DNA of 64,000 nt, from assembly GCA_944386885.1 (NCBI GenBank), contig CALXCU010000060.1, forward strand, positions 6,650 to 70,649. The letters are read 5' to 3'. Positions 42,116 through 55,346 of this stretch are shown here, piece by piece; the first letter of the stretch is position 1; each line of letters opens with the position of its first letter. The position numbers and the translations under genes are program-made. The stretch is from an uncultured Oscillospiraceae bacterium (GTDB lineage: Bacteria > Bacillota > Clostridia > Oscillospirales > Oscillospiraceae). The notes under the pieces are model-generated. The model searched no databases. It saw only the letters and a list, made by a program, of their open reading frames with translations, and was not told the DNA's origin.

Positions 42116-43312
42116 ATGTCTGATCTCCATCAAGAGGCCCTCAACCTGCGGGAGGAACTGGTCCGCTGGCGGCGCTGGCTGCATACCCACCCGGAACTGG
42201 GCATGGATCTGCCCGGGACGGCGGCGTATGTCCGCACCCAGCTGGAGGAGATGGGCTACACCGTTCAATCCCTGTGCGGCACCGGCCTAGCGGCTCTGCT
42301 GGAGGGGTCAAAGCCCGGCAAAACCCTGCTGCTTCGGGCTGATATGGATGCCCTTCCCATTCAGGAGGAAAGCGGTGAGCCCTTTTCCAGTCAGAACCCA
42401 GGTGTCTGCCACGCCTGCGGCCACGATACCCATACTGCCATGCTCCTGGGAGCCGCCAAGCTGTTGATGGCCCACCGAGAAGAGGTCTGCGGCCGGGTCA
42501 AGCTGGTCTTTCAGCCCGGCGAGGAGGGGGCTGGCGGCGCGCAGGCCATGGTGAAAGCCGGCGTGCTGGAGTCCCCCCATGTGGACGCCGCCATGGCCCT
42601 GCACCAAGTAGTCACCCGGCACAACGTCCCCTCAGGCACCCTGTGCTACACCCCCGGCGGGACCATGGCCAGCTGCGATGTCTTCCGCATTACCGTCCGC
42701 GGCAAGGGCTGCCACGGCGCAGCCCCCGAGTTGGGTGTGAACCCCATTCATCTGCTGTGTTCCATCTATCAGGCCATCCAGACTATCGAGTTCTGCGAAA
42801 AAAAGCGCCAGAGGCCCATGGCTCTCTCGGTTGGTCAGATCCAGGCCGGAGCGGCGGGAAATGTGATTCCCGGCGACGGTTTCCTCTGCGGCAGCCTGCG
42901 CTGCTTTGACACGGAAACCCGTACTTTGGCCAAGCGCCGCCTTCGGGAGATTGCCGAAGGCGTGGCCGCCACCCTCGGGGGCCGCGCCGAGGTGGAATTT
43001 TCCCTGGAGATGCCCCCCACCGTCAACGACACAGCTGTAGGCAACGAGATGTTCACCTATGCCAAAGAGGTGCTGGGCCCGGAGCGCACCGCCTATCTGG
43101 ACCCGGTCATGGGCTCGGAGGATTTTGCCGAAATCCTCACCCGGGTGCCCGGCGTATATTTCCGCCTCAGCATGGGCAGCTGGGAGGAGGGTTATCGCAT
43201 CAACAGCCACCATCCTGCCGTCCGTTTCGACGAGGATGCCATGCCCAACGGCGCGGCGGTGTTCGCCCACTGCACTCTGCGCTGGCTGGAACGCCATGCC
43301 TTTGAATCCTGA
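42116..43312 (+). CDS. M20D-family amidohydrolase (AbgA / N-acyl-amino-acid hydrolase-like)
   Basis: WRRWLHTHPELG, LLLRADMDALPI, ACGHDTH. AAAGGAG lies 8 nt before the ATG at 42116. Confidence 0.85.
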   Translation: MSDLHQEALNLREELVRWRRWLHTHPELGMDLPGTAAYVRTQLEEMGYTVQSLCGTGLAALLEGSKPGKTLLLRADMDALPIQEESGEPFSSQNPGVCHACGHDTHTAMLLGAAKLLMAHREEVCGRVKLVFQPGEEGAGGAQAMVKAGVLESPHVDAAMALHQVVTRHNVPSGTLCYTPGGTMASCDVFRITVRGKGCHGAAPELGVNPIHLLCSIYQAIQTIEFCEKKRQRPMALSVGQIQAGAAGNVIPGDGFLCGSLRCFDTETRTLAKRRLREIAEGVAATLGGRAEVEFSLEMPPTVNDTAVGNEMFTYAKEVLGPERTAYLDPVMGSEDFAEILTRVPGVYFRLSMGSWEEGYRINSHHPAVRFDEDAMPNGAAVFAHCTLRWLERHAFES

Positions 43313-43330
43313 ACGTTTTCTCTTCCATCC

Positions 43331-43368
43331 AAGACCGGCGCGGCCTGATCGGCCGCGCCGGTCTTTTC
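43331..43368 (+). terminator. Rho-independent terminator
   Basis: aagaccggcgcggcc-tgatc-ggccgcgccggtctt followed by ttcc. Confidence 0.8.
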
Positions 43369-43404
43369 CTGTTCCAAGCTTCTGATTACGGGTTAATTGG
43401 TTCG

Positions 43405-43437
43405 AATTTTACCTAAATTTTACTAAAATTTGACCAG
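43405..43437 (+). repeat. Three tandem 11-bp direct repeats (AATTTTACCTA AATTTTACTAA AATTTGACCAG)
   Basis: Read directly. One-helical-turn periodicity, about 85 bp upstream of the sigI promoter motif. Confidence 0.6.
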
Positions 43438-43518
43438 GTACAGAATACGCCCATCCCTTTTTTACCGTAAAATAGGAAAATAGCATTTCGTATTCTCTTT
43501 TTTTGAATGATTCGCATA

Positions 43519-43554
43519 GCGACCCCGAAAATCCGGCTGCAGCTTCGTATGCTA
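43519..43554 (+). promoter_or_regulatory. Sigma-I-type promoter candidate P1 (gcGACCCCG-N18-CGTATGCTA) upstream of sigI
   Basis: One of three copies of the same motif with identical 18-nt spacing. C-rich -35 and CGTA -10. Confidence 0.6.
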
Positions 43555-43577
43555 TTGCTGGAGGAGAAGATGGAGGG

Positions 43578-44330
43578 ATGCAGATGGTACGCACGGCGGA
43601 ACATGAAATCGTTTCCCAGGTCCGGGCGGCCAAGGCGGATACCGGTGCAGCTGACGCGCTGATCCGTCAGTACATGAGCTTTATCCGCAGCGAGACGGTG
43701 AAGTTTATCCACGCCCAGCCGGAAAACGGCCATGAAGATGAACTGAGCATCGCTATGCTGGCCTTTTATGAGGCGATCCTCGCCTATCAGCCGGGACGAG
43801 GCGCTTTCCTCTCCTTCGCGGCCAGAGCCATTCGAAACCGCCTCATCGACCACTACCGCACAGAGAAGCGCCACGGGAATGTCATCTCCCTCAATGCCCC
43901 CGCCGGGGCGGAAGAGGAGGAGCGGAGCCTGCTGGATACCCTGCCTGACGGGGCGGCAGATCACGCGGAGGACTATGCCCTCCGTACAGCCAGCCAGGCG
44001 GAAATCCAGGAATTTTCCGCCAAACTCTCCGGCTTTGGCATTACCTTTTCCGACGTGGCGGACAACTGTCCCCGGCAGGAGCGCACTTTGGCGGCCTGCC
44101 GCCGGGTGCTCGCCTGTGCCAGGGCCAACCCGGCGCTGCTCTCCCAGGTGGAAGAGACGGGCCGGCTGCCCATGGCCGAACTGGCAAAGCGCTCTGGGGT
44201 AGAGAAAAAGACTCTGGAGCGACACCGGAAATACCTGGTGGCCATTCTGCTGGCATTTACCAACGGCTATGAGATCATCCGGGGCCATCTCTGTCAGATT
44301 GGGCCCGCCAAGGGAGGGAGTGTGGAATGA
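43578..44330 (+). CDS. sigI: RNA polymerase sigma-I factor
   Basis: Region-2-like DELSIAMLAFYEAILAYQPGRGAFLSFAARAIRNRLIDHYR plus a SigI-type C-terminal domain (ITFSDVADNCPRQERT..., KYLVAILLAFTNGY). The start is 43578 or 43584. Overlaps rsgI by ATGA. Confidence 0.85.
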   Translation: MQMVRTAEHEIVSQVRAAKADTGAADALIRQYMSFIRSETVKFIHAQPENGHEDELSIAMLAFYEAILAYQPGRGAFLSFAARAIRNRLIDHYRTEKRHGNVISLNAPAGAEEEERSLLDTLPDGAADHAEDYALRTASQAEIQEFSAKLSGFGITFSDVADNCPRQERTLAACRRVLACARANPALLSQVEETGRLPMAELAKRSGVEKKTLERHRKYLVAILLAFTNGYEIIRGHLCQIGPAKGGSVE

Positions 44331-45349
44331 ACTATCTCGTGCTGGAGACCCACCCGGCCTATGCGGTCCTGTTGGACGAGGAGGGGCGCTTCCTCAAGGC
44401 GGCCAACCTCCACTACCAAGTGGGCGACACGGTGCAGAATATTGTGGAGCTGCGTCCCCCCCAGCCCCGCCGGGTCCATCCCGCCAAGCCTTTGGCGGGG
44501 GTGGCCGGCCTGGCCGCCTGCCTGTGCCTGGCCTTCTTCGGCTACTATCAGCCCAATTTTGTGGCCTACGGCACCCTGCGCATCCAGATCAATCCGGATG
44601 TGGAGATGACCCTCAGCCGCACCGACCGGGTCCTGGGGCTGGAAGGCCTCAATGCAGACGGCCTGATCCTGATAGACGGCTACGACTACCGGGGTAAAGA
44701 CCGGGATACCGCAGCGGAGGAACTGGTAGAACGGGCCATTGATATGGGCTACCTCTCCGACGGCGACACCATTTCCATTACGGTCAACAGCGGCGACGCT
44801 GGCTGGCAGAGCCGGGAGGAGGAGGAACTCCAGGCCCGGCTGGAGGAGAACTATGGTGAAACCATTGTCATCCAGGTTGGGGAGGCCGGGTCAGCCCCCG
44901 CCACAGAGGTGGTCATCCCCCTGCCGGTGGAAACCTCCGCACCGGCCCCCACTCCTCCGCCCACTGCCGCCCCCACCGCCGGGCCGGCCACATCCACCCC
45001 TGTCCCGATGCCGGAACCCACTTCCAGACCTACCGCGGCCCCTTTCCCCACACCGGTTCCTACGCCGGTCCCCACTCCAACGCCCGTGCCCGCCTCAACC
45101 CCCGGCGGTGACACGGACTACGGCCCCGGCGGCGACGGCGTCACCGATTACGGCCCCAACAACGACGGCGTCACCGACTATCAGGAGTCCTATGATCCCT
45201 ACCGAGATGGAGATACCGACTATGACAGGCGAGAAAACATTCTGAATGGCGGCCGGGACGAGGACGATGAGGATGATGAGGATGAAGATGACGGCGGGGA
45301 CGATGACGGAGATGACGGGGATATGGAAGAAGATGACGATAAGCGGTAA
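44327..45349 (+). CDS. rsgI: Anti-sigma-I factor RsgI-family protein with a Pro/Thr linker, acidic DYG repeats and a poly-acidic tail
   Basis: RsgI N-domain [34 protein letters not shown], a single TM segment [19 protein letters not shown], and a juxtamembrane domain INPDVEMTL...GLNADG. The C-terminus reads [24 protein letters not shown]...[22 protein letters not shown]. Confidence 0.85.
45110..45181 (+). repeat. Two copies of the DYGPxxDGVTDY repeat inside rsgI, with nucleotide identity to the downstream array
   Basis: tacggccccaacaacgacggcgtcaccgacta is identical to units of the 46329-46709 array. Confidence 0.8.
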
Positions 45350-45359
45350 TCTTTTTCCC

Positions 45360-45395
45360 GCAGCCCCGGTTTTCTCAGCCGCCTCTCGTATGCTA
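45360..45395 (+). promoter_or_regulatory. Sigma-I-type promoter candidate P2 (gcAGCCCCG-N18-CGTATGCTA)
   Basis: Same motif and spacing as P1. Located 11 nt after the rsgI stop. Confidence 0.55.
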
Positions 45396-45442
45396 CAGAT
45401 AGAAGCGGCGGGACCAGAAAAAAATCTTCATTTTTTCTCCCC

Positions 45443-45478
45443 GCGGCCCCGGTCTTCCAAGCCCCGCCCCGTATCCTA
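45443..45478 (+). promoter_or_regulatory. Sigma-I-type promoter candidate P3 (gcGGCCCCG-N18-CGTATCCTA)
   Basis: Same motif and spacing. Located 65 nt upstream of the lipoprotein start. Confidence 0.55.
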
Positions 45479-45542
45479 CCAACACAGAACACAAGCACCT
45501 GGAATACAAACCACACCCACTGTTTTTAAGGAGATGAACGAG

Positions 45543-46802
45543 ATGAAAAAGAAGTTCTATGGTAAGCTGTTCGGCCTGGGCCTGACCACCGCCCTGACCC
45601 TGACGGACCTGACCGCCTGTTCGGGCGGCACCGCAGCGGCCCCCACCGGTTCGGCCGCCCTCACGTCCCCCCCTTCCACCGCGCAGGAGGCCGGTTCCGA
45701 CTCTGTGGGCACCGTCCTGCTCAGCGTCAACCCCGAGATTGAGATGGACTATGACGATGCGGGCAACGTGGTGGCCCTCAACGGCCTCAACGACGACGGG
45801 AAGGCTGTCCTGGCCTCCTACACCGGCTATGAGGGCAGGGCCTGCACCACCGTCATCGGCGAGCTGGTGGACGAGATCAACGCCGGCGGCTATTTTGACG
45901 GCACCGTGGGCGGCCATGAGAAAAACATTGTCCTGAAGCTGGAACGGGGCTCCAAATACCCCAGCGAGACCTTCCTCACCGACCTGGCCGACGCGGTTCG
46001 GGTCACCGTGGAGACCGAGCAGATCGGCTCCCAGACTGTGGCTCTGGACGACGATGACTATGATGATACCTACGCCGATCAGGGCTACATCAACGCTACC
46101 GCCGCCCAGAGGATCGTCTCTACCCAGCTGGGCCGGGATGACCTCCAATTTGTGGAAAAAGAGTACGATCTGGATGACGGCGACTATGAGGTAGAATTCA
46201 CCCTGGACGGCGTGGAGTATGAGTATGAGGTCAACGCCGTCACCGGCAAAGTGACCGAAGTAGAAATAGACGGCTCCCGCCCCATTTCCAGCAGCCCTGT
46301 CACCACGACCGCCACTCCTGCACCCAACTATGACGACACCGATTACGGCCCCAACAGCGACGGCGTCACCGACTACGACGACACCGATTACGGCCCCAAC
46401 AGCGACGGCGTCACCGACTATGACGACACCGATTACGGCCCCAACAGCGACGGCGTCACCGACTATGACGACACCGATTACGGCCCTAACAACGACGGCG
46501 TCACCGACTACGACGACACCGATTACGGCCCTAACAACGACGGCGTCACCGACTACGACGACACCGACTACGGCCCTAACAACGACGGCGTCACCGACTA
46601 CGACGACACCGACTACGGCCCCAACAACGACGGCGTCACCGACTACGACGACACCGACTACGGCCCCAACAACGACGGCGTCACCGACTATGACGACACC
46701 GACTACGGGAACTGGGACGATGATGACGACGATGACGACGACTGGGACGGCGAAGACCATTGGAATGACGATGACGACGGTGATGACCGCTGGGACGACT
46801 AA
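45543..46802 (+). CDS. Lipoprotein with an RsgI-ectodomain-like domain, a PepSY domain, 8.5 x 15-aa acidic repeats and a poly-Asp/Trp tail
   Basis: AAGGAGA lies 8 nt before the ATG at 45543. Lipobox [13 protein letters not shown]...GLNDDG parallels RsgI. PepSY-like [13 protein letters not shown]...[23 protein letters not shown]. Repeats YDDTDYGPN(S/N)DGVTD. Tail [30 protein letters not shown]. Confidence 0.85.
46329..46709 (+). repeat. Tandem 45-bp repeat: 8 full units plus a 21-bp partial unit (in-frame, coding)
   Basis: Units start at 46329, 46374, 46419, 46464, 46509, 46554, 46599, 46644 and 46689. Only synonymous or near-synonymous differences occur (agc/aac, gat/gac, ccc/cct). Confidence 0.95.
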
Positions 46803-47481
46803 GCCCCTCCGCCTGCGGCATGAGGAAAAGCACCAGATCTCTCCCCTGGAGGATCTGGTGCTCGCCGGACGGCTGCGCCGCCTCTTTCCCTGGGACGCCC
46901 ACGCAGGGCGGGACGGTTCCTATCGGGTGAACAGCCTCTATTTTGATACCCCCTACGACGCTGCTCTGCGGGAGAAGCTGAACGGGGTGGACCGCCGGGA
47001 GAAGTTCCGCCTGCGCTATTACGGCACCGATCTCTCCTTCCTGCGCCTGGAGAAAAAATGCAAGCTCAACGGCCTGTGCGGCAAGCGCTCCGCCCGCCTG
47101 ACCCTGGATGAGGTCCAGCGCCTGCTCTCCGGGGACTACCGCTTCCTGCTGAAGCGGAAGGACCCTCTGCTCTGTGAATTTTACAGCAAGCTGCGGGGCA
47201 GCGCCCTCTCCCCCAGGGCCGTGGTATGCTACGACCGGGAGGCCTTTCTCTACCCGCCGGGCAATGTGCGCATTACCCTGGACCGGAACGTGCGCACGGG
47301 TCTGAGCTGGCAGAATTTCCTGGTCCCGGCGGCCCATCCGCTCAAGCCCCTGGGGAAGTTGACCGTACTGGAGGTCAAATACGACGCATTCCTGCCCGAC
47401 CTGGTCCGCCAGGCTGTCCAGGTGCCCGGCCGCCGGGCCGGCGCCTGCTCCAAATACGCCCTGTGCCGCCGGTACGACTGA
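46783..47481 (+). CDS. VTC domain (polyphosphate-polymerase domain) protein
   Basis: RHEEKHQIS...[12 protein letters not shown]...EKFRLRYY...LEKKCKLNG...VLEVKYD pattern. The start is uncertain: the only in-frame ATG/GTG codons (46765, 46771, 46780, 46783) lie inside the 3' end of the upstream gene. Confidence 0.75.
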
Positions 47482-47506
47482 ATCAAAACGCTAAGGAGGC
47501 CCACCC

Positions 47507-48181
47507 ATGACCACCTTTCAGGATATTTTCAAATCCAGCTTTTTGGAGCGCATGGACAGCGTCTCCCTGCTGGACACCGCCGCCGCCCTGGCCCTGGCCT
47601 TCCTGCTGGGCCTGTTCATCTTCCTGGTCTATAAACGCAGCTACAGCGGCGTCATGTACTCCCCCAGCTTTGGTGTGACACTCATCGCTCTGACTCTGAT
47701 CACCACGCTGCTGATTCTGGCGGTAACCAGCAACATTGTCCTCTCCCTGGGCATGGTGGGCGCACTGTCCATCGTCCGCTTCCGCACCGCCATCAAAGAA
47801 CCCCTGGACATCGCCTTCCTCTTCTGGGCCATTGCGGTGGGCATCGTGCTGGCCGCGGGGCTGCTGATCCTGGCGGTGGCGGGGAGCCTGTTCGTGGGCC
47901 TGGTGCTGCTGGCCTTCTCCCGGCAGAAGAACGGCGAGTCACCCTACATCCTGGTCGTCCGCTGCGCCTCTTCCCGGGAGGAGGCACAGGTCCAGGCTCT
48001 GGTAGCGGAGCGGGTGCGGCGGCTGAACCTGAAGAGCAAGAGCGTCTCTCCCGGGGAGATCGAGCTCAATTACGAGGTGCGCCTGCGGGAGGGGGACACT
48101 GGCTTTCTCAACGAGCTGGGCGCTATGGAGGGCGTGGAACATGTGGTATTGGTCTCCTACAACGGGGACTACATGGGCTGA
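47507..48181 (+). CDS. DUF4956 domain membrane protein
   Basis: AAGGAGG lies 7 nt upstream of the ATG. GALSIVRFRTAIKEPLDIAFLFWAIAVG motif, four TM segments and a soluble C-terminal domain. Confidence 0.8.
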   Translation: MTTFQDIFKSSFLERMDSVSLLDTAAALALAFLLGLFIFLVYKRSYSGVMYSPSFGVTLIALTLITTLLILAVTSNIVLSLGMVGALSIVRFRTAIKEPLDIAFLFWAIAVGIVLAAGLLILAVAGSLFVGLVLLAFSRQKNGESPYILVVRCASSREEAQVQALVAERVRRLNLKSKSVSPGEIELNYEVRLREGDTGFLNELGAMEGVEHVVLVSYNGDYMG

Positions 48182-48184
48182 GCC

Positions 48185-49603
48185 ATGATCCGCCACCGCT
48201 ACATCGACGGGATCTGCGCCCTGGCCATGGCATTGGCCCTGGTCTTGACCGCCCTGCTGGCCCACGGGGAGACTTTGGGCATCCAGAAAGCCTCCGCCGC
48301 ACCGGAGTACGCCTTCCGCCTCTTTGATGATAGCCGGGTCCACACCGTGGACCTCCAGGTGGAGGATTGGGAGGGATTCCTGGCCGCCGCACCGGCGGAG
48401 GAGTACGTCCCCTGTACCGTCACCGTGGACGGCGAGGCATTTTCCCAGGTCGGCCTGCGGGCCAAGGGGAACAATTCTCTGCGCCTGACCGAGGAATACG
48501 GCCTGTCCCGGTACAGCCTGAAGCTGGAGTTCGACCACTATTTGGACGGAGGCAGCTACCACGGCCTGGACAAATTCTCCCTAGACGCCTCCTTCCAGGA
48601 CAACAGTTACCTCAAGTCTTTTCTGGTCTACGACATGATGGACTCTATGGAGGTGCCCGCGCCCCTGTGCAGCTACGCCTGGGTCACGGTGAACGGGGTG
48701 CCCTGGGGGCTCTTTCTGGCCGTGGAGGAGCCGGAGGAGGCCTTCGCCCGGCGGAACTTCGGCGCGGACCACGGCCTGCTCTACAAGCCGGACTATCGCT
48801 CCCTGCGGGAGGAAAATGCCGATGTGGCCCTTCGGTATGTGGACAGCGACCCGGCGAGTTATCCCAATCTGTTCGAAAACGCCAAATTTGAGGTAGACGC
48901 GGCCGGTCAGGCCCGGCTCATCGAAGCCCTGCGGGTGCTCTCCACCGGGGAAGACCTGGAGCGGGCCGTAAATGTGGACGAGGTGCTGCGCTATTTCACG
49001 GTCCAGGTCTTTGTCATGAACTGGGACAGCTACCTGGGCCACACAGGGCACAATTACTTCCTCTACGAGGAGGACGGCGTGCTCTCCATCCTGCCCTGGG
49101 ATTACAACCTGGCCTTCGGCACCTACGCTCTGGGCATGACGGACCCCATCCGGGACCCCAACATCCTCATAAACTGGCCCATCAACACCCCCGCCCGGGG
49201 GGAGACTATGCTGGAGCGGCCTCTCTACCACAATCTCATGAAGAATAACGCCTATTTCGCACAGTACCACGCCTATTTCGACCAGTTCCTCACGGAGTAT
49301 CTGGAGAGCGGCCGCTGCGAGGCCCTGCTGCGGGAGACCCAGGCCCTCATCGCCCCCTATGTGGCCGCCGACCCCACCGCCTTCTGCACCTATGAGGACC
49401 ACCTCCTGGCAGTGGACACCCTGATCGAGGTCTGCCGCCTGCGCGCCCAGAGCGTCCGGGGACAGTTGGACGGGGCATATCCCGCCACCCTGGCCCAGCA
49501 GGCGGAGCACCCAGATCTGGGGGTGGACGCCTCCCATATCTCCCTCCAGGATCTCGGGGACTTTGAGGACCTGGAAGAGGCCGCCCGGCGGCTTTCCCGC
49601 TGA
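48185..49603 (+). CDS. CotH-family atypical kinase with an N-terminal signal/anchor (extracytoplasmic)
   Basis: Signal-like ICALAMALALVLTALLAHG. CotH-like FSLDASFQDNSYLKSFLVYDMM, LLYKPD, NWDSYLGHTGHNYFLY, LPWDYNLAFG. Starts 3 nt after the DUF4956 stop. Confidence 0.85.
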   Translation: MIRHRYIDGICALAMALALVLTALLAHGETLGIQKASAAPEYAFRLFDDSRVHTVDLQVEDWEGFLAAAPAEEYVPCTVTVDGEAFSQVGLRAKGNNSLRLTEEYGLSRYSLKLEFDHYLDGGSYHGLDKFSLDASFQDNSYLKSFLVYDMMDSMEVPAPLCSYAWVTVNGVPWGLFLAVEEPEEAFARRNFGADHGLLYKPDYRSLREENADVALRYVDSDPASYPNLFENAKFEVDAAGQARLIEALRVLSTGEDLERAVNVDEVLRYFTVQVFVMNWDSYLGHTGHNYFLYEEDGVLSILPWDYNLAFGTYALGMTDPIRDPNILINWPINTPARGETMLERPLYHNLMKNNAYFAQYHAYFDQFLTEYLESGRCEALLRETQALIAPYVAADPTAFCTYEDHLLAVDTLIEVCRLRAQSVRGQLDGAYPATLAQQAEHPDLGVDASHISLQDLGDFEDLEEAARRLSR

Positions 49604-49616
49604 ACCAAAACAGAAA

Positions 49617-49649
49617 GCCGCGCCCATCTCATCTGGGCGCGGCCTTTTT
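49617..49649. terminator. Bidirectional terminator between CotH and the convergent serA
   Basis: gccgcgccca-(7 nt)-tgggcgcggc followed by cttttt. An A-run lies upstream for the opposite strand. Confidence 0.8.
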
Positions 49650-49665
49650 GCCTGTTCAGCTGTCT

Positions 49666-50835
49666 TTAATCCTGGATCAGACGGATGCGGAAGACTCCCT
49701 CCACCGCCTTGAGGGCGGCCAAGTCCGCCTCGCTCACCGTTCCGCTCACGTCGATGAGGGTATAGGCGTACTCGCCCCGGGCCTTGTTGGTCATGTGCTC
49801 AATGTTGAACCCGCCCTGAGAGAGGACGGTGGTCAGCTTCAGAAGCATATTGGGCACGTTCCGGTGCAGGGCGCACACCCGGGCGCAGTCTCCCCGCTCC
49901 ATGGACACGTCGGGGAAGTTCACCGAGTGGACAATATTGCCCTCCAGCAGGTACTCCTTCAGAGACTGGGCGGCCATGACGGCGCAGTTGAGTTCGCTCT
50001 CCGGCGTAGAGGCGCCCAAATGGGGCAGGGCCGTTACATTGGGGGCAGCCAGGATGCCCGCGCTGGGGAAGTCGGTGACATAGCGGGCCACCCGACCGGT
50101 ATTCAGGGCCTCCACCAGAGCAGCCTCGTTCACCAGGCCGCCCCGGGCCAGGTTAATGATCCGCACGCCGGGCTTAGTCTGGGCGAGCACCTGGGCGTTG
50201 ATGGTGTCCTTGGTGCTCTCGTTATAGGGCAGATGGAGGGTGATGTAGTCGGCCTTCTGCCAGAGCTCCGTCTCGTCCTTGACGCAGTGGACGTGCCGGT
50301 CCAGGCGCAGGGCAGTCTCCACCGACAAATAGGGGTCGTAGCCGTAGACCTCCATGCCCAAAGCATAGGCGGCGTTGGCCACCAGCACGCCGATGGCCCC
50401 CAGCCCCACCACAGCCAGAGTCTTGCCCATGATCTCGGGCCCGGCAAAGACCGACTTGCCCTTCTCCACGGCGGTGGACAGATCCACGCCGGCCTCGGCC
50501 TGCTCCCGTACCCAAGCCGCGCCCCCCACCAGGTTGCGGGAGGCCATCAGAAGGGCGGCCAGGGCCAGTTCCTTCACGGCGTTGGCGTTGGCGCCGGGGG
50601 TATTGAAGACCACTACCCCCGCCTGGGCGCAACGGTCCAGGGGGATGTTGTTCGTCCCCGCCCCCGCCCGGGCAATGGCCCGCAGGTTAGGGCCGAACTC
50701 CATCTCGTGGAGGGAGGCCGAGCGGACCAGGATGCCGTCCGGGTCGCCGACTTCCGCCCCCACCTGGAAGCGGTCCCCCGGCAATACGTCCAAGCCCGCC
50801 TGGGCGATGTGGTTCATGGTCTTAATGGAATACAT
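49666..50835 (-). CDS. serA: D-3-phosphoglycerate dehydrogenase with a C-terminal ACT domain
   Basis: GLGAIGVLVA Rossmann motif, NLARGGLV, HLGAST, and an ACT-like tail. Confidence 0.9.
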   Translation of the reverse strand: MYSIKTMNHIAQAGLDVLPGDRFQVGAEVGDPDGILVRSASLHEMEFGPNLRAIARAGAGTNNIPLDRCAQAGVVVFNTPGANANAVKELALAALLMASRNLVGGAAWVREQAEAGVDLSTAVEKGKSVFAGPEIMGKTLAVVGLGAIGVLVANAAYALGMEVYGYDPYLSVETALRLDRHVHCVKDETELWQKADYITLHLPYNESTKDTINAQVLAQTKPGVRIINLARGGLVNEAALVEALNTGRVARYVTDFPSAGILAAPNVTALPHLGASTPESELNCAVMAAQSLKEYLLEGNIVHSVNFPDVSMERGDCARVCALHRNVPNMLLKLTTVLSQGGFNIEHMTNKARGEYAYTLIDVSGTVSEADLAALKAVEGVFRIRLIQD

Positions 50836-50853
50836 GGCGTCTCTCTCCCTCTC

Positions 50854-51939
50854 TTAATGCTTCCGGTCAAAGTCCCGGATAAACTGGCACAGCTTCTCCA
50901 CGCCCTCCACCGGCATGGCGTTGTAGATGGAGGCCCGCATACCCCCCACCGACCGATGGCCCTTCAGATTGGAGAACCCGGCTGCGGCGGCCTCGGAGAC
51001 GAACTGGGCGTCCAGGTCCGCGTCGCCGGTGCGGAAGGTCACGTTCATTCCCGAACGGGAGCCCTTCTCAGCGTGGCAGTGGAAGAGCTTGGAGCTATCC
51101 AGGGTCTCATAGAGCATGGAGGAGCGCAGATTGCGCAGCTTCTCCATGCCGACTAGCCCCCCCTGTTCCTCGATCCAGTCCAGCACCAGGCCCAGCATAT
51201 AGATGCACCAGCAGGGCGGCGTGTTGTACATGGAGTCCTTGTCAATGAGGGTCTTATAGGTGAGCATCAGGGGCGTGTAGGGCAGCTCATGGCCGGCCAG
51301 GTCCTTTCGGATGATGACCACCGTCAGGCCCGCCGGGGCCATGTTCTTCTGGGCGCCGGCAAAGATGATGCCATATTTGCTCACATCCACCGGCCGGGAG
51401 AGGATATTGGAGGACATATCGCACACCAGGGGTACCGCCCCGGTCTCGGGGACATAGTTCCACTCGGTGCCGTAAATGGTGTTGTTGGCACAGTAATAGA
51501 AATAGGATGCCTCGGGATCCAGCTTGAGCGCCTCCTGAGGAGGGATCGCGGTGAACTGCTTCGCCGAGGTGTCGGCCGCCAGGGAGACCTCCCCATATTT
51601 CCGGGCCTCCTTGGCTGCGGACTGGGCGAAGTGGCCGGTGACAGCGTAGTCGGCTTTCCCGCTCCGGCTCATCAAATTCAGGGGCACGGCGGAAAACTGG
51701 GTGCTGGCCCCCCCCTGGAGGAAAAGGATCTCGTGGGTCTCCGGGATCTGGAGCATCCTGCGCAGCTTGGCCTTGGTGTCCTGGAAGATCTGGTCGAACA
51801 CCTTAGAGCGGTGACTCATCTCCATGACGGACATACCGGAACCGCCGTAATTGGTGATCTCGGACCCGGCACGGGTAAGAGCCTCCAGCGGGAGCATGGA
51901 GGGGCCTGCGGAAAAATTGTAAATGCGGTGATTTTCCAT
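50854..51939 (-). CDS. serC: Phosphoserine aminotransferase
   Basis: IYNFSAGPSMLP, FLQGGAS, GAQKNMAPAG. I chose the ATG at 51939 (family-typical N-terminus, GAAAGGGG upstream). Confidence 0.92.
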   Translation of the reverse strand: MENHRIYNFSAGPSMLPLEALTRAGSEITNYGGSGMSVMEMSHRSKVFDQIFQDTKAKLRRMLQIPETHEILFLQGGASTQFSAVPLNLMSRSGKADYAVTGHFAQSAAKEARKYGEVSLAADTSAKQFTAIPPQEALKLDPEASYFYYCANNTIYGTEWNYVPETGAVPLVCDMSSNILSRPVDVSKYGIIFAGAQKNMAPAGLTVVIIRKDLAGHELPYTPLMLTYKTLIDKDSMYNTPPCWCIYMLGLVLDWIEEQGGLVGMEKLRNLRSSMLYETLDSSKLFHCHAEKGSRSGMNVTFRTGDADLDAQFVSEAAAAGFSNLKGHRSVGGMRASIYNAMPVEGVEKLCQFIRDFDRKH

Positions 51940-52016
51940 GGATATACCCCTTTCATCAGCTGGGCGAGGCGCCCACATTACCGCTTCTGCCAGAAAGGCG
52001 GAAGCGTATGCTTCAT

Positions 52017-52045
52017 ATTATAACAATTTAGCGCGTTGAATGCAA
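52017..52045 (-). promoter_or_regulatory. Promoter TTGCAT-N17-TATAAT for serC-serA
   Basis: -35 at plus-strand 52040-52045 (ATGCAA) and -10 at plus-strand 52017-52022 (ATTATA). Confidence 0.65.
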
Positions 52046-52145
52046 GGGACGCACTGCACAATTCCCCCCGCACCCCATTCTTGCTCTTTGGAGAAAGCAG
52101 GTGCTCCGCTGGCGTTTCCGCCAAAAAACATGGATATTTTTTGTT

Positions 52146-52181
52146 AGAAATGCCGGTCTCCCCGAGGAGACCGGCATTTCT
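52146..52181 (-). terminator. Perfect 16-bp hairpin downstream of the SLH-peptidase gene (no adjacent U-tract)
   Basis: agaaatgccggtctcc-ccga-ggagaccggcatttct, located 9 nt after the stop codon. Confidence 0.55.
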
Positions 52182-52189
52182 GGCGTTCC

Positions 52190-53647
52190 CTACATGCCCA
52201 TGTAAGAGAAATGCATATAGTCGTGATAGCCCGACTCGTCGTAGGCCCCGCTGGACCAGGCATCCCCACCCCAGCTCCAGCCGTGGGCCTTGAAAATGCG
52301 CACCACCGAGCAGTCGGGGCCCATGGAATAGGGATTGCTTCCCGGCGCCCAGAGGCTGCCCACCAGGGCCTGGCCGCTCCGGACCTGGTAGTTTTCATTG
52401 GAGTTGATGTCGATGGCGCTGCCGCAGTTGTGCTCGCCGCTGGCGTTGTCCCCCCTCCAGGAGTAGCCCCCCGCCTCATAGATGGGGAACTGCTCAGGGT
52501 CATTGTAGATCTCCGTAAAGATGGCCTTCACATCCTCGGCCAAGCCCGCGTTGACGGTGAGGGACAGGCTGGAGGACACCTTCTGGCCGTTGGAGAGCTT
52601 CCAAACCGGCACGGTGACCGTTGTCATGGCTGTCTGGGCCTCTGTCTGGTTCTCAAAGCGGCGCTTGTCCCCCCGGCCGAAAAGCTGGGTATACTTGCGG
52701 GGGTTCTCCCCCTCCTGCCGCAGCCAGAAGTCCTGCTGCAAATACTCGTCGTAGGTAATCTCCCCGTTCCGGTACTGCTCCCAGGCCTGCTCCTCCGCGA
52801 TCTCGTCCGCCGTCATAGTCCGGTACTGGAGGGTAATTTCCTGAGAGAGTGTGCTGACCTGGTAACTGGGCCCCACAAAGCGGTAGCCCTCCGGATCTGC
52901 GGCCAAGGTGACATAGTTATAACACACCTTGGTCTGGACTGTCTGGTCGGGCGCGATGGTCTGCCCGCTCTGATCCACAAAGTGGACCGTGACGGTGTGG
53001 GGCTCCCAGCGGTGCTCCTGGTCCACCAGGTCCAGCACCCCCATCAAGAGGACTGCGCCCTCCGCCCGGGTCAAAGTCTTCTCCCCCTGAAAGTTGCCGC
53101 CGCCGGTGCCGTTTACAATGCCAGCCCGGTAGAGTGCGTCTACCCCTTCCCGGTAGGCCGCGGGGATCTGCATCCAGTCGGGGAAGTCCGCGGCGGCATC
53201 CCGGATCTCATACATCCAGCCTTCGGTGAGACCCTCCTCAGGGGCCAGGCGGTAGAGCACCTCTACCGCCCCTTTCCGGTCCACCGGTGTCTCCAGGCTC
53301 TCCGCCGACACGGGCAGGAAATCTCCTTCCTCCACCACACCCGCATCCAGGGCCGCCCGATAGCCCTGACCGGCCCAGTTCTCCCCCTTGGGCGCCGCGT
53401 CGTAGGTCTCCCGGTAGAAGGTCCGCCCCACCATCGTCAGAAACTGCCCCCAAGTCAGGGTGCCATTCGGGTCCATTGCCCCGCCGGAGCCGCCGGACAA
53501 GATGCCCAGCTCCCGGGCCTGATCCATCTGCTCATAGGCCCAGTGGCTCTCGTCCAAATCAGGGTATGCCGCCGCCCCGGCCGGGGCCGCCAGAGCCGCA
53601 CAGAGCCCCAGCGCCAAAGCACGCCGCCGCCATTTCTTCCAATCCAC
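52190..53647 (-). CDS. Secreted SLH-domain protein with a C-terminal M15 (VanY/LAS-type) peptidoglycan peptidase domain
   Basis: GTG start 6 nt after GAGGGAGGAA. Signal peptide ALALGLCAALAAPAGAAA. SLH-like YPDLDESHWAYEQMDQARELGILSG. GEHNCGSAIDIN and DYMHFSY metal ligands. Confidence 0.8.
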   Translation of the reverse strand: MDWKKWRRRALALGLCAALAAPAGAAAYPDLDESHWAYEQMDQARELGILSGGSGGAMDPNGTLTWGQFLTMVGRTFYRETYDAAPKGENWAGQGYRAALDAGVVEEGDFLPVSAESLETPVDRKGAVEVLYRLAPEEGLTEGWMYEIRDAAADFPDWMQIPAAYREGVDALYRAGIVNGTGGGNFQGEKTLTRAEGAVLLMGVLDLVDQEHRWEPHTVTVHFVDQSGQTIAPDQTVQTKVCYNYVTLAADPEGYRFVGPSYQVSTLSQEITLQYRTMTADEIAEEQAWEQYRNGEITYDEYLQQDFWLRQEGENPRKYTQLFGRGDKRRFENQTEAQTAMTTVTVPVWKLSNGQKVSSSLSLTVNAGLAEDVKAIFTEIYNDPEQFPIYEAGGYSWRGDNASGEHNCGSAIDINSNENYQVRSGQALVGSLWAPGSNPYSMGPDCSVVRIFKAHGWSWGGDAWSSGAYDESGYHDYMHFSYMGM

Positions 53648-53813
53648 GCAAGATTCCTCCCTCTCTGCCCGTGTTTTCCGCAGGCGCTGTTCTGTTTTAC
53701 GGAACCTAGCATAGCACATTTCCAACAAAATGCAATTTCCCAAGATAATATTCTCTCTAATTTGTAAGATTTTTCTCCTCCCCTGGGATAAAAAAGAAAA
53801 GGAGGTTTTCCCC

Positions 53814-55346
53814 ATGCGCAAGCGATTTTCCCGGCTGTGGCCCTGGCTGCTGCTGGCGGTCTTTCTGCTCTCCCTGCTGCCGGTGGTGTCCCTGGGCCGG
53901 TATGCCCGCGCCGCAGCCGACGACTACTGCTATGGCATTGCCACCCACCGCGCCCTCCTGGCGGGGGAGGGGATTCCGGGGCTGCTGGGCGCGGTATGGC
54001 ACACCATGTGGGGCTATTACCAGAGCTGGCAGGGCACCTTCTCCGCCCTGGCCCTCATGTCCCTCACTCCCTGTATTTTTTCCGAGGGAGCCTACTGGCT
54101 CACCGCAGTGGTGATGCTCGCCTCCCTGGTGGGCGGCACCTTCCGCCTGAGCCTCACCCTGTGCCGGCGGGTGCTGGGTGGAACGGGGCGAGACGGAATG
54201 CTGGTCGCCCTGGCCCTCCTTTTTCCATCAGTGCACTGCCTGGCTGAGCCCCTGCACAGCTTTTTCTGGTGGAACGGCGCGGTGTACTACACCTTTACCT
54301 ATGGCCTCTCCCTGTGCTACGCGGCCCAGCTGGCGCAACTCTTCTGCCCGGAGCGGCCCGGCGCCCGGGTGTGGCTGCCCGGGCTGCTGCTGGGGCTTTT
54401 TCTGGGCGGGAGCAACTACGTCTCCGCCCTGCTCTCCGCCCTTTTGGGCCTTACCGCCCTGCTCTGGACGGCCTGGCAGAGGCGGGACCGGGCCGGCCCC
54501 GCCCTGGCTATGGTCCTGCCTCTGCTGGCCGCCTTCGCGGTGAGCGTCCTGGCCCCGGGCAACCAAGTCCGCCAGAGCGGCGAGACCCCCATGTCCGCCC
54601 CAGAGGCCATTCTGGCCTCTCTGCAGCAGGGGTGGGGCGACCTGCTGGACTGGCCCAGCTGGCTGACCTTGATCGCCGCCCTGACCCTGATCCCCCTCCT
54701 GTGGAGACTTGCTGGGCGGAAGCATTGGCGCTTCCCTCTGCCCGTCTTTTTCTCCCTGGCCACCTTTCTCTTTTTCTCCGCCCAAAACGCCCCTCACTTC
54801 TATGCCGCCTCCAGTGCAGGACCCGACCGGCTGCGAAACATCATCTACTTCTCCCACTACTGGGTGGTGCTGCTCAACGAGTTCTATTGGCTGGGCTGGC
54901 TGCGGCGGGCACTGGGCGGGAGATTGCCCGCCCCGGGGCCTTGGCTCCGGCGGACGGCCGCCTTGGCTCTGGTCCTCCTGTTTCTGGGCTGGTTGCCCCA
55001 CTACCTCCCCGGCCTCACCGCCGTGCGCTGCTGGAGGGCCCTTGCCGACGGCAGCGCTGCGGCCTATGCCCAGCAGCGGGACGCGCGCCTGCCCGCCCTC
55101 CTGGACCCGGAAAACACCGACCCACGGTTCCCACTGCTCACCGTCCGCCCGCCTCTGCTCTTTCTGGGGGACATCACCCAGGACCCCGCCGACTGGCATA
55201 ACAACACCCTCGCGGTCTTTTATGGGAAAGATTCTGTGGCTCTTCTCGTGTCCTCAGTGTCCTTGGATAAGGAACATGAAATGTTCCTTATCCCGCCCGA
55301 AACGGGAGTTCGGGCGGGCGCGCCGTTTCTGCTGCCGCCTCTCTAA
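53814..55346 (+). CDS. Large polytopic membrane protein, possibly a GT-C-like glycosyltransferase (DUF6056-like)
   Basis: GGAGG lies 8 nt before the ATG at 53814. About 12 hydrophobic spans. The functional assignment is weak. Confidence 0.55.
   Translation: MRKRFSRLWPWLLLAVFLLSLLPVVSLGRYARAAADDYCYGIATHRALLAGEGIPGLLGAVWHTMWGYYQSWQGTFSALALMSLTPCIFSEGAYWLTAVVMLASLVGGTFRLSLTLCRRVLGGTGRDGMLVALALLFPSVHCLAEPLHSFFWWNGAVYYTFTYGLSLCYAAQLAQLFCPERPGARVWLPGLLLGLFLGGSNYVSALLSALLGLTALLWTAWQRRDRAGPALAMVLPLLAAFAVSVLAPGNQVRQSGETPMSAPEAILASLQQGWGDLLDWPSWLTLIAALTLIPLLWRLAGRKHWRFPLPVFFSLATFLFFSAQNAPHFYAASSAGPDRLRNIIYFSHYWVVLLNEFYWLGWLRRALGGRLPAPGPWLRRTAALALVLLFLGWLPHYLPGLTAVRCWRALADGSAAAYAQQRDARLPALLDPENTDPRFPLLTVRPPLLFLGDITQDPADWHNNTLAVFYGKDSVALLVSSVSLDKEHEMFLIPPETGVRAGAPFLLPPL

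Follow-up and report, generated by a model that had tools for sequence, protein, structure and literature searches.

Predicted SigI-dependent promoters with a conserved tract difference at a sigI-rsgI locus of an uncultured Oscillospiraceae bacterium

A 64,000-nucleotide stretch of DNA from an uncultured Oscillospiraceae bacterium (GenBank assembly GCA_944386885.1, contig CALXCU010000060.1; hereafter the window) carries three copies of one two-block motif. One copy, P1, lies in front of a sigI-rsgI gene pair, and the other two, P2 and P3, sit between rsgI and a lipoprotein gene that is followed by VTC-domain, DUF4956 and CotH-family genes. It is highly probable that RNA polymerase recognises all three as promoters when it carries the SigI-type sigma factor that this sigI encodes. 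The assignment follows from the position and orientation of the motif, from footprinting across related loci and from the family to which the sigma factor belongs. The predicted circuit, in which SigI would activate both its own gene and a conserved cell-envelope operon in a family of gut bacteria, is well supported by sequence comparison and largely of an expected kind; its unusual detail is the conserved T-tract of the target promoters, which are arranged in tandem.

The motif in the window and in related loci

The window contains exactly three matches to GCRRCCCCG-N18-CGTATSCTA, all on the plus strand, and the same three sites are returned when up to two mismatches are allowed. Dinucleotide-preserving shuffles average 0.08 matches, the number expected by chance, and not one of 100 reached three. 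Every copy has an 18-nt spacer, and the flanks are identical at 15 of 18 positions across all three. A preliminary description of the window, made from its letters alone, had pointed out these sites; a pattern scan places them at precisely its coordinates (Table 1), and the spacing and the roughly 15 matching flank positions that it gave were borne out. It had also called the spacers unrelated, which is true of P1 relative to P2 and P3 (3/18 and 6/18 identical positions) but not of P2 relative to P3, which agree at 11/18 positions, including a T-rich start.

A weight matrix trained on the sites of other species, with the window and a near-identical relative left out, recovered exactly these three sites, with scores of 33.4, 27.6 and 16.0 bits. 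The next-best position in the rest of the 64 kb scored -1.6 bits, and the top score among shuffles was 11.5. Taken alone, the looser pattern CCCCG-N16-20-CGTA does not reach significance in the window (7 found against 3.5 expected); the signal therefore resides in the longer blocks.

The window was compared with 80 further loci obtained by a genome scan based on SigI alignment, from Oscillospiraceae and a few Lachnospiraceae (853 kb in all). SigI identity in these loci is 59-80%, save for one near-identical locus (L001, 99%). The order sigI-rsgI-lipoprotein-VTC-DUF4956-CotH is widely conserved among them. Both strands were scanned for CCCCG and CGTAnnCTA separated by 17-20 nt, with at least 11 of 12 positions matching. 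This gave 203 distinct sites, 202 of which lie upstream of sigI or of the lipoprotein operon, and the motif is essentially absent elsewhere in these loci. Within 150 nt upstream of sigI there are 74 sites in 74 loci, the window included, typically about 60 nt from the gene, and the rsgI-lipoprotein intergenic regions of 72 loci hold another 127. In Merdimonas faecis (L077), where the lipoprotein operon is inverted, one minus-strand site stands 74 nt ahead of it; the orientation of the motif is inverted along with the operon. Five loci with an intact sigI upstream region fell below the threshold and carry one-mismatch versions of the motif.

The one site elsewhere, and the sole other weak match in the window, is at 52160 (11/12 positions, 19-nt spacer). 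It falls within a perfect hairpin at 52135-52185 (AGAAATGCCGGTCTCC...GGAGACCGGCATTTCT), probably a terminator, which adjoins a minus-strand SLH/peptidase M15 gene (52190-53821).

When 23 sigI upstream regions are aligned, no columns other than CCCCG, CGTA and CT are invariant, and the spacers vary. Across 20 rsgI-lipoprotein intergenic regions, invariance is confined to both copies of the motif, the ribosome-binding site and the start codon. The core kept in relatives can be written (G/A)(A/G)CCCCG - A4 or T4 tract - N13-14 - CGTA-NN-CT. The CCCCG, CGTA and CT of the motif as first described are retained, but its leading GC and last A vary among relatives. Taken together, the comparison lends support to both regulatory predictions of the preliminary description: autoregulation of sigI-rsgI is suggested by the motif upstream of sigI in 74 loci, and sigma-I control of the lipoprotein operon by the sites in 72 loci and by the site that follows the inverted operon of L077.

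The layout extends to more distant sigI loci. L201 (SigI 44% identical) has GACCCCG-18 nt-CGTATTCTA upstream of sigI. In L202 (41%), TCCCG-18 nt-CGTATTCTA precedes sigI and GCCCCG-18 nt-CGCATTCT follows rsgI, and L205 (37%) has ACCCCC-19 nt-CGAATACTA upstream of sigI, which is the Bacillales spacing. Exceptions in the -10 tetrad are CGCA in one distant locus and CGAA in another.

Some genomes hold two sigI copies (the locus pairs L022/L036, L007/L019 and L006/L039); in the first pair, from Pseudoflavonifractor capillosus An827, each copy is a full sigI-rsgI-lipoprotein-VTC-DUF4956-CotH unit with its own motif sites. In three Faecalibacterium-like loci (L060, L064 and L053) the scan returned the sigI-side site only. 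As none of them has a P2/P3 site downstream of sigI, any targets must sit elsewhere in those genomes; in L064 a short open reading frame (211 aa) follows sigI.

SigI, RsgI and the fit to known sigma-I promoters

The sigI gene encodes a protein of 248 aa, and its ATG start is conserved in alignments with relatives. The ten best NCBIfam matches of the protein are all SigI models (best E 1e-45). It aligns over its full length, in both domains, with Clostridium thermocellum SigI6 (8I24; residues 13-237, E 5e-24) and SigI1 (8I23), and it also matches the separately solved SigI1 C-terminal domain (6IVU). From these alignments, it appears to combine a sigma-2 domain with the SigI-specific C-terminal domain in place of sigma-4.

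The rsgI product begins with an N-terminal inhibitory domain, followed by a transmembrane helix, which was read by eye from the translation, and a SEAL domain (Pfam RsgI_M, E 9e-21) with the cleavage motif IN↓PDVEM. The SEAL domain gives way to a disordered stretch rich in Pro and Thr, then to TDYGPxxDGVTDY repeats and an acidic tail. The solved post-cleavage RsgI9 chains 8U9O_B and 8HEP_B begin at the position aligned with Pro90 of this motif. With its predicted N-domain, transmembrane helix, SEAL domain with an Asn-Pro site and location adjoining sigI, the protein fits the definition of an anti-sigma-I factor.

Published sigma-I promoters provide the yardstick for P1 to P3. The preliminary description had cited a C-rich -35 element, with a -10 element of CGAA in B. 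subtilis and CGWA in C. thermocellum, and this is correct: the consensus sequences are ACCCCC--AA-15N-CGAA----T in Bacillales and AAA-13/14N-CGWA in clostridia (PMC4711584). Three parts make up a sigma-I promoter as defined in PMC6056542: the -10 tetrad, the A-tract and, upstream, a region of specificity. The SigI C-terminal domain reads the specificity region through the major groove and the A-tract through the minor groove (PMC10575876); a further paper, in eLife, gives no promoter consensus (PMC7478892).

P1 has the complete layout, with the specificity region GACCCCG at 43521-43527, the A-tract AAAA at 43528-43531, CGTA at 43546-43549 and CT at 43552-43553. It can be read as AAAA, 14 nt, CGTA or, equivalently, as GACCCC-GA-AA-15N-CGTA. 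A tetrad of the CGWA type, CGTA, is present in P1, P2 and P3 and invariant in the alignments of relatives; CCCCG is likewise invariant and comparable to the ACCCCC and CCC of PMC4711584. The motif also stands in the autoregulatory position, upstream of sigI-rsgI, in the distant sigI loci. The A-tract is what separates the three sites: P1 has one, whereas P2 has GTTTT and P3 has GTCTT at this place. The same split runs through the comparison set, with an A-tract in 67/74 sigI-side sites and a T-tract in 127/127 target-side sites. T-tracts also occur in six sigI-side sites and in the sigI promoters of the distant loci L202 and L205. A literature search on SigI in Oscillospiraceae and on T-tract sigma-I promoters returned nothing relevant. 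We consider P2 and P3 to be T-tract variants that work like sigma-I promoters, not canonical members of the class.

A metagenome scan for the T-tract form only (16 specified bases) gave 129 matches in 120 stretches. Fifty-nine precede homologues of the lipoprotein gene and 25 precede sigI; roughly a dozen stand before other short PepSY/SEAL lipoproteins, most of them beside sigI-rsgI, and one lies directly before VTC-DUF4956 (L159). The remainder are mostly inside long open reading frames, as chance predicts for 16 bases in a very large collection. Three minus-strand matches have other neighbours: L098:926 precedes a sigma gene resembling the extracytoplasmic function (ECF) type, and L193:5606 and L200:1016 precede YukD/EssC-like genes. 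The type VII secretion genes of L193 lie in low-GC DNA, and the L200 site is identical in sequence to that of L193. These three sites may be extra regulon members elsewhere, or chance matches.

Several observations weigh against the assignment of the three sites to SigI. P2 and P3, together with all 127 equivalents, have a T-tract where experimentally defined sigma-I promoters have an A-tract, and the published CGWA----T has its conserved T one base farther from the tetrad than the sites described here. The window protein scores below the curated equivalog cut-offs of the NCBIfam SigI models, and the RsgI_N domain is detected weakly (E 0.012). The distribution of the motif given here is that within the window and related loci. 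Finally, the minor-groove residue His171, shown to be essential in SigI6, is Gln in the window protein (PKHRDS against PRQERT; NCPRQERT at 44071-44088). This Gln is invariant in the clade of the window SigI, and the K-H-R-x-S motif is absent. Among the 94 nearest full-length representatives of the family, the equivalent residue is Q in 50, H in 20, S in 9 and A in 8; with H in only 20 of the 94, His is not universal in the SigI family. The change from His171 to Gln was also considered as the cause of T-tract use, and this was rejected, since Gln is the commonest residue among the 94 and L205, which is of the His type, has a T-tract promoter.

Alternative readings and the proposed circuit

ECF promoters have an AAC -35 element, a T-tract and a CGT -10 element. 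The most serious alternative is that P1 is a SigI promoter, but that P2 and P3 are read by another alternative sigma factor, for example one of the ECF type encoded elsewhere. The strict division of the tracts between the two classes of site fits this idea. In a study of sigma-I3, single mutations in the A-tract abolished recognition, the T-tract was treated as an ECF feature and the difference between A- and T-tracts was proposed to prevent cross-talk (PMC6056542). The L098 site before an ECF-like sigma gene points the same way. Further likenesses to ECF systems are the CGT within the -10 element, a T-tract placed just after the -35 element, autoregulation and an adjacent membrane anti-sigma factor. 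On the other side, P2 and P3 lack the AAC that defines ECF -35 elements, and they share with P1 the CCCCG block, the 18-nt spacing and CGTA-NN-CT. The sigma factor of the locus itself has the SigI C-terminal domain, not sigma-4, as seen in its full-length alignment to SigI structures. The T-tract is moreover not confined to target-side sites, being found in front of sigI in the six loci noted above as well as in L202 and L205, and the target-side sites travel with sigI-rsgI in 72 loci. We therefore consider a separate sigma factor for P2 and P3 improbable.

Still less probable is that the motif is the operator of a DNA-binding regulator other than a sigma factor, with transcription starting at other, unrecognised promoters. 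Conservation by itself cannot tell a promoter from an operator, and the TTKAC repeats and TAnAAT hexamer upstream of P1 (described below) could form a separate promoter. Against this, the two blocks form neither a palindrome nor a direct repeat, they are always 18-19 nt apart and, even in the inverted locus L077, they are oriented like the gene downstream. They stand at a promoter-like distance from the ribosome-binding site and start codon, in a layout that matches experimentally defined sigma-I promoters, and sigI and rsgI are the only regulator genes conserved in the locus.

That the three copies are functionless leftovers of a local duplication or of a small repeat element is effectively refuted by positional conservation: although P2 adjoins P3 and the spacer positions shared by the two would fit an old tandem duplication, the flanking intergenic DNA differs from genus to genus around invariant motif blocks, both the P2 and the P3 class keep features of their own across species, no copies occur elsewhere in the window or the loci, and Rfam finds nothing.

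SigI promoters thus remain the preferred reading of P1 to P3, and the circuit can be outlined on this footing. At rest, SigI would be held by RsgI at the membrane, with the SEAL domain of RsgI cut between N89 and P90; an envelope signal would be expected to trigger intramembrane proteolysis and release SigI. The SigI C-terminal domain would then read GACCCCG through the major groove and, next to it, the A4 or T4 tract through the minor groove, and the sigma-2 domain would read CGTA, extended by CT two bases on, with the distance from CCCCG to CGTA fixed at 18 nt. P1 would provide positive autoregulation of sigI-rsgI, and the P2/P3 pair would drive the lipoprotein-VTC-DUF4956-CotH operon. As no terminator was found between rsgI and the lipoprotein gene, read-through from P1 probably reaches the operon too.

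The sigI1 promoter of C. thermocellum has its transcription start 11 nt after the last A of CGWA (PMC4711584). Applied to the window, this distance predicts starts at 43560, 45401 and 45484, close to the 43560, 45402 and 45485 of the preliminary description.

A bolder, joint reading adds two elements: that one SigI serves an A-tract grade of promoter for its own gene and a tandem T-tract grade for its targets, and that the lipoprotein is a decoy or co-sensor for RsgI. We put this forward tentatively, with less than even confidence.

Promoter surroundings, target operon and related systems

The features of the locus are collected in Table 1.

Table 1. Features of the sigI-rsgI-lipoprotein locus, in coordinates of the window.
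Feature	Position	Strand	Basis or description
Intrinsic terminator 3' of M20 amidohydrolase gene	43331..43365	+	15-pair stem, then T run
Three direct repeats TTTAC-N6-TTTAC-N6-TTGAC	43408..43437	+	11-bp period; repeat kept in relatives
P1, predicted autoregulatory sigma-I-type promoter	43519..43554	+	Motif match; equivalents in 74 loci
sigI-type sigma factor gene	43584..44330	+	NCBIfam SigI models, PDB alignments
rsgI-type anti-sigma factor gene	44327..45349	+	Pfam RsgI_M; overlaps sigI stop codon
P2, upstream member of predicted tandem sigma-I-type pair	45360..45395	+	T-tract after CCCCG
P3, downstream member of predicted tandem pair	45443..45478	+	T-rich tract after CCCCG
Lipoprotein gene, predicted first target	45543..46802	+	Pfam RsgI_M E 2e-14, PepSY E 4e-6
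VTC-domain gene (polyphosphate-polymerase-like)	46783..47481	+	Pfam VTC E 5e-31
DUF4956 membrane protein gene	47507..48181	+	Pfam DUF4956 E 6e-12
CotH-family kinase-like gene, last of operon	48185..49603	+	Pfam CotH E 5e-56
Bidirectional intrinsic terminator, operon end	49614..49646	.	Follows CotH-family gene

The unit from sigI to the CotH gene is bracketed by two terminators, the first of which insulates it from transcription coming from upstream, and a simple consensus scan of 43200-45700 and 45300-52400 returned no sigma-70-like promoter. An Rfam scan of 43300-45700 at E <= 1 returned no RNA family and gives no evidence of a leader RNA or riboswitch in this region. The P1 motif ends 30 nt upstream of the sigI ATG. 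Its predicted leader of about 24 nt is in line with the short sigI leaders of C. thermocellum, those of sigI1 and sigI8 being listed as 16-18 nt (PMC4711584).

Farther upstream, about 115 nt before P1 in the window, lies the TTKAC triple repeat. Of 66 unique regions upstream of sigI, 36 contain it, at a distance of 105-120 nt before CCCCG except for a single case at -75. It is rare overall, with 49 occurrences on the plus strand of the 853 kb, and the distant locus L201 also has one. A TAnAAT hexamer (43468-43473 in the window) is often found 40-55 nt before CCCCG in sigI upstream regions. The repeats and hexamer look like response-regulator boxes with a second, housekeeping-type sigI promoter, for which they are candidates.

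The tandem arrangement of P2 and P3 is conserved: 55 of the 72 loci have two sites, most often 68-72 nt apart. Each class keeps features of its own across species, P2 being CGTATCCTC followed by CCnnTGTAAG and P3 being CGTAATCTA. In relatives (L002-L075), CCnnTGTAAG lies directly 3' of the P2 -10 element and straddles the predicted start; the window has a diverged version of it at 45396-45410 (CAGATAGAAG). All three promoter classes share an A/T-rich block, located 8-18 nt upstream of CCCC, which may act as an UP-like element. The predicted P3 start lies 59 nt before the lipoprotein ATG.

The lipoprotein has a lipobox (LTAC), a SEAL domain with VN↓PEIEM, a PepSY domain and an acidic tail. It contains about 8.5-9 copies of DDTDYGPN(S/N)DGVTDY, encoded by 8.5 near-perfect 45-nt DNA repeats at 46327-46708. 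RsgI holds the same repeat, as TDYGPNxDGVTDY, in 2-3 copies (2.3 at 45112-45180). The two proteins also share the acidic tail at their end, and their SEAL domains are 35% identical (BLASTP). By sequence, the lipoprotein resembles the extracellular part of RsgI, its sensor region. SEAL-PepSY fusions without an anti-sigma domain have been noted before (PMC10556640). The VTC gene probably starts at ATG 46783, which gives a 20-nt overlap with the end of the lipoprotein gene. Beyond the operon, the plus-strand open reading frames 49648-51156 and 51289-52023 were rejected as spurious; they have no family matches and lie opposite real minus-strand genes.

Among known systems, the sigma-I regulon of Bacillus subtilis and other Bacillales includes cell-wall genes such as mreBH and lytE. 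The window agrees with Bacillales sigma-I promoters in the C-rich -35 element 18-19 nt before CG(A/T)A, in the A-rich stretch of P1 and in the placement in front of sigI-rsgI. It departs from them in its -10 element, CGTA-NN-CT rather than CGAA----T, in the -35 block GACCCCG, and in its target promoters, which have a T-tract, are in tandem and are predicted to serve a SEAL-PepSY lipoprotein gene and VTC-DUF4956-CotH instead of such cell-wall genes. Like window RsgI, B. subtilis RsgI has a disordered extracellular region, according to PMC9732909.

With sigma-I1 to sigma-I8 of C. thermocellum, the window shares the three-part layout, the AAAA-14 nt-CGTA of P1 and the short sigI leader, and sigma-I3 likewise prefers a CCC specificity region (PMC4711584, PMC6056542). 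Unlike C. thermocellum, with its many polysaccharide-sensing paralogues, the window has a single sigI-rsgI pair beside its predicted target operon. Its RsgI has no carbohydrate-binding module, all its target promoters have T-tracts and His171 is replaced by Gln.

A comparable set of genes is tabulated for NELoc-2 of Clostridium perfringens, in a paper that reports no promoter analysis: a sigma factor resembling SigI, a hypothetical cell-wall protein of 348 aa, VTC, a membrane protein and CotH (PMC2879425). The membrane protein, annotated as 'tubulin/FtsZ, GTPase', would correspond to DUF4956. In this comparison, which is by gene table only, NELoc-2 differs from the window in a resolvase insertion and duplicated VTC genes. 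A trio of CotH, polyphosphate polymerase and DUF4956 is also known as an accessory set beside Gram-positive Pel loci.

SigI and RsgI have so far been studied in Bacillus, in the context of cell-wall stress, and in cellulolytic clostridia, in that of polysaccharide sensing. The locus described here offers a precise promoter model and a minimal predicted regulon for a widespread SigI system of gut Oscillospiraceae, among them Flavonifractor, Pseudoflavonifractor, Intestinimonas, Faecalibacterium and Gemmiger. Through this locus, SigI is connected with VTC-DUF4956-CotH, an uncharacterised module that recurs near Gram-positive Pel loci and in a pathogenicity locus of C. perfringens. A T-tract in sigma-I-type promoters also matters for genome scans that use the published A-tract rule. 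Should the joint reading prove true, both the requirement for an A-tract and the rule that a T-tract denotes an ECF promoter would be overturned, and a built-in hierarchy of expression would be implied, its two grades conserved across a whole family of gut Clostridia. The lipoprotein, as decoy or co-sensor, would then feed back on RsgI and tie an envelope-sensing circuit to VTC-DUF4956-CotH.

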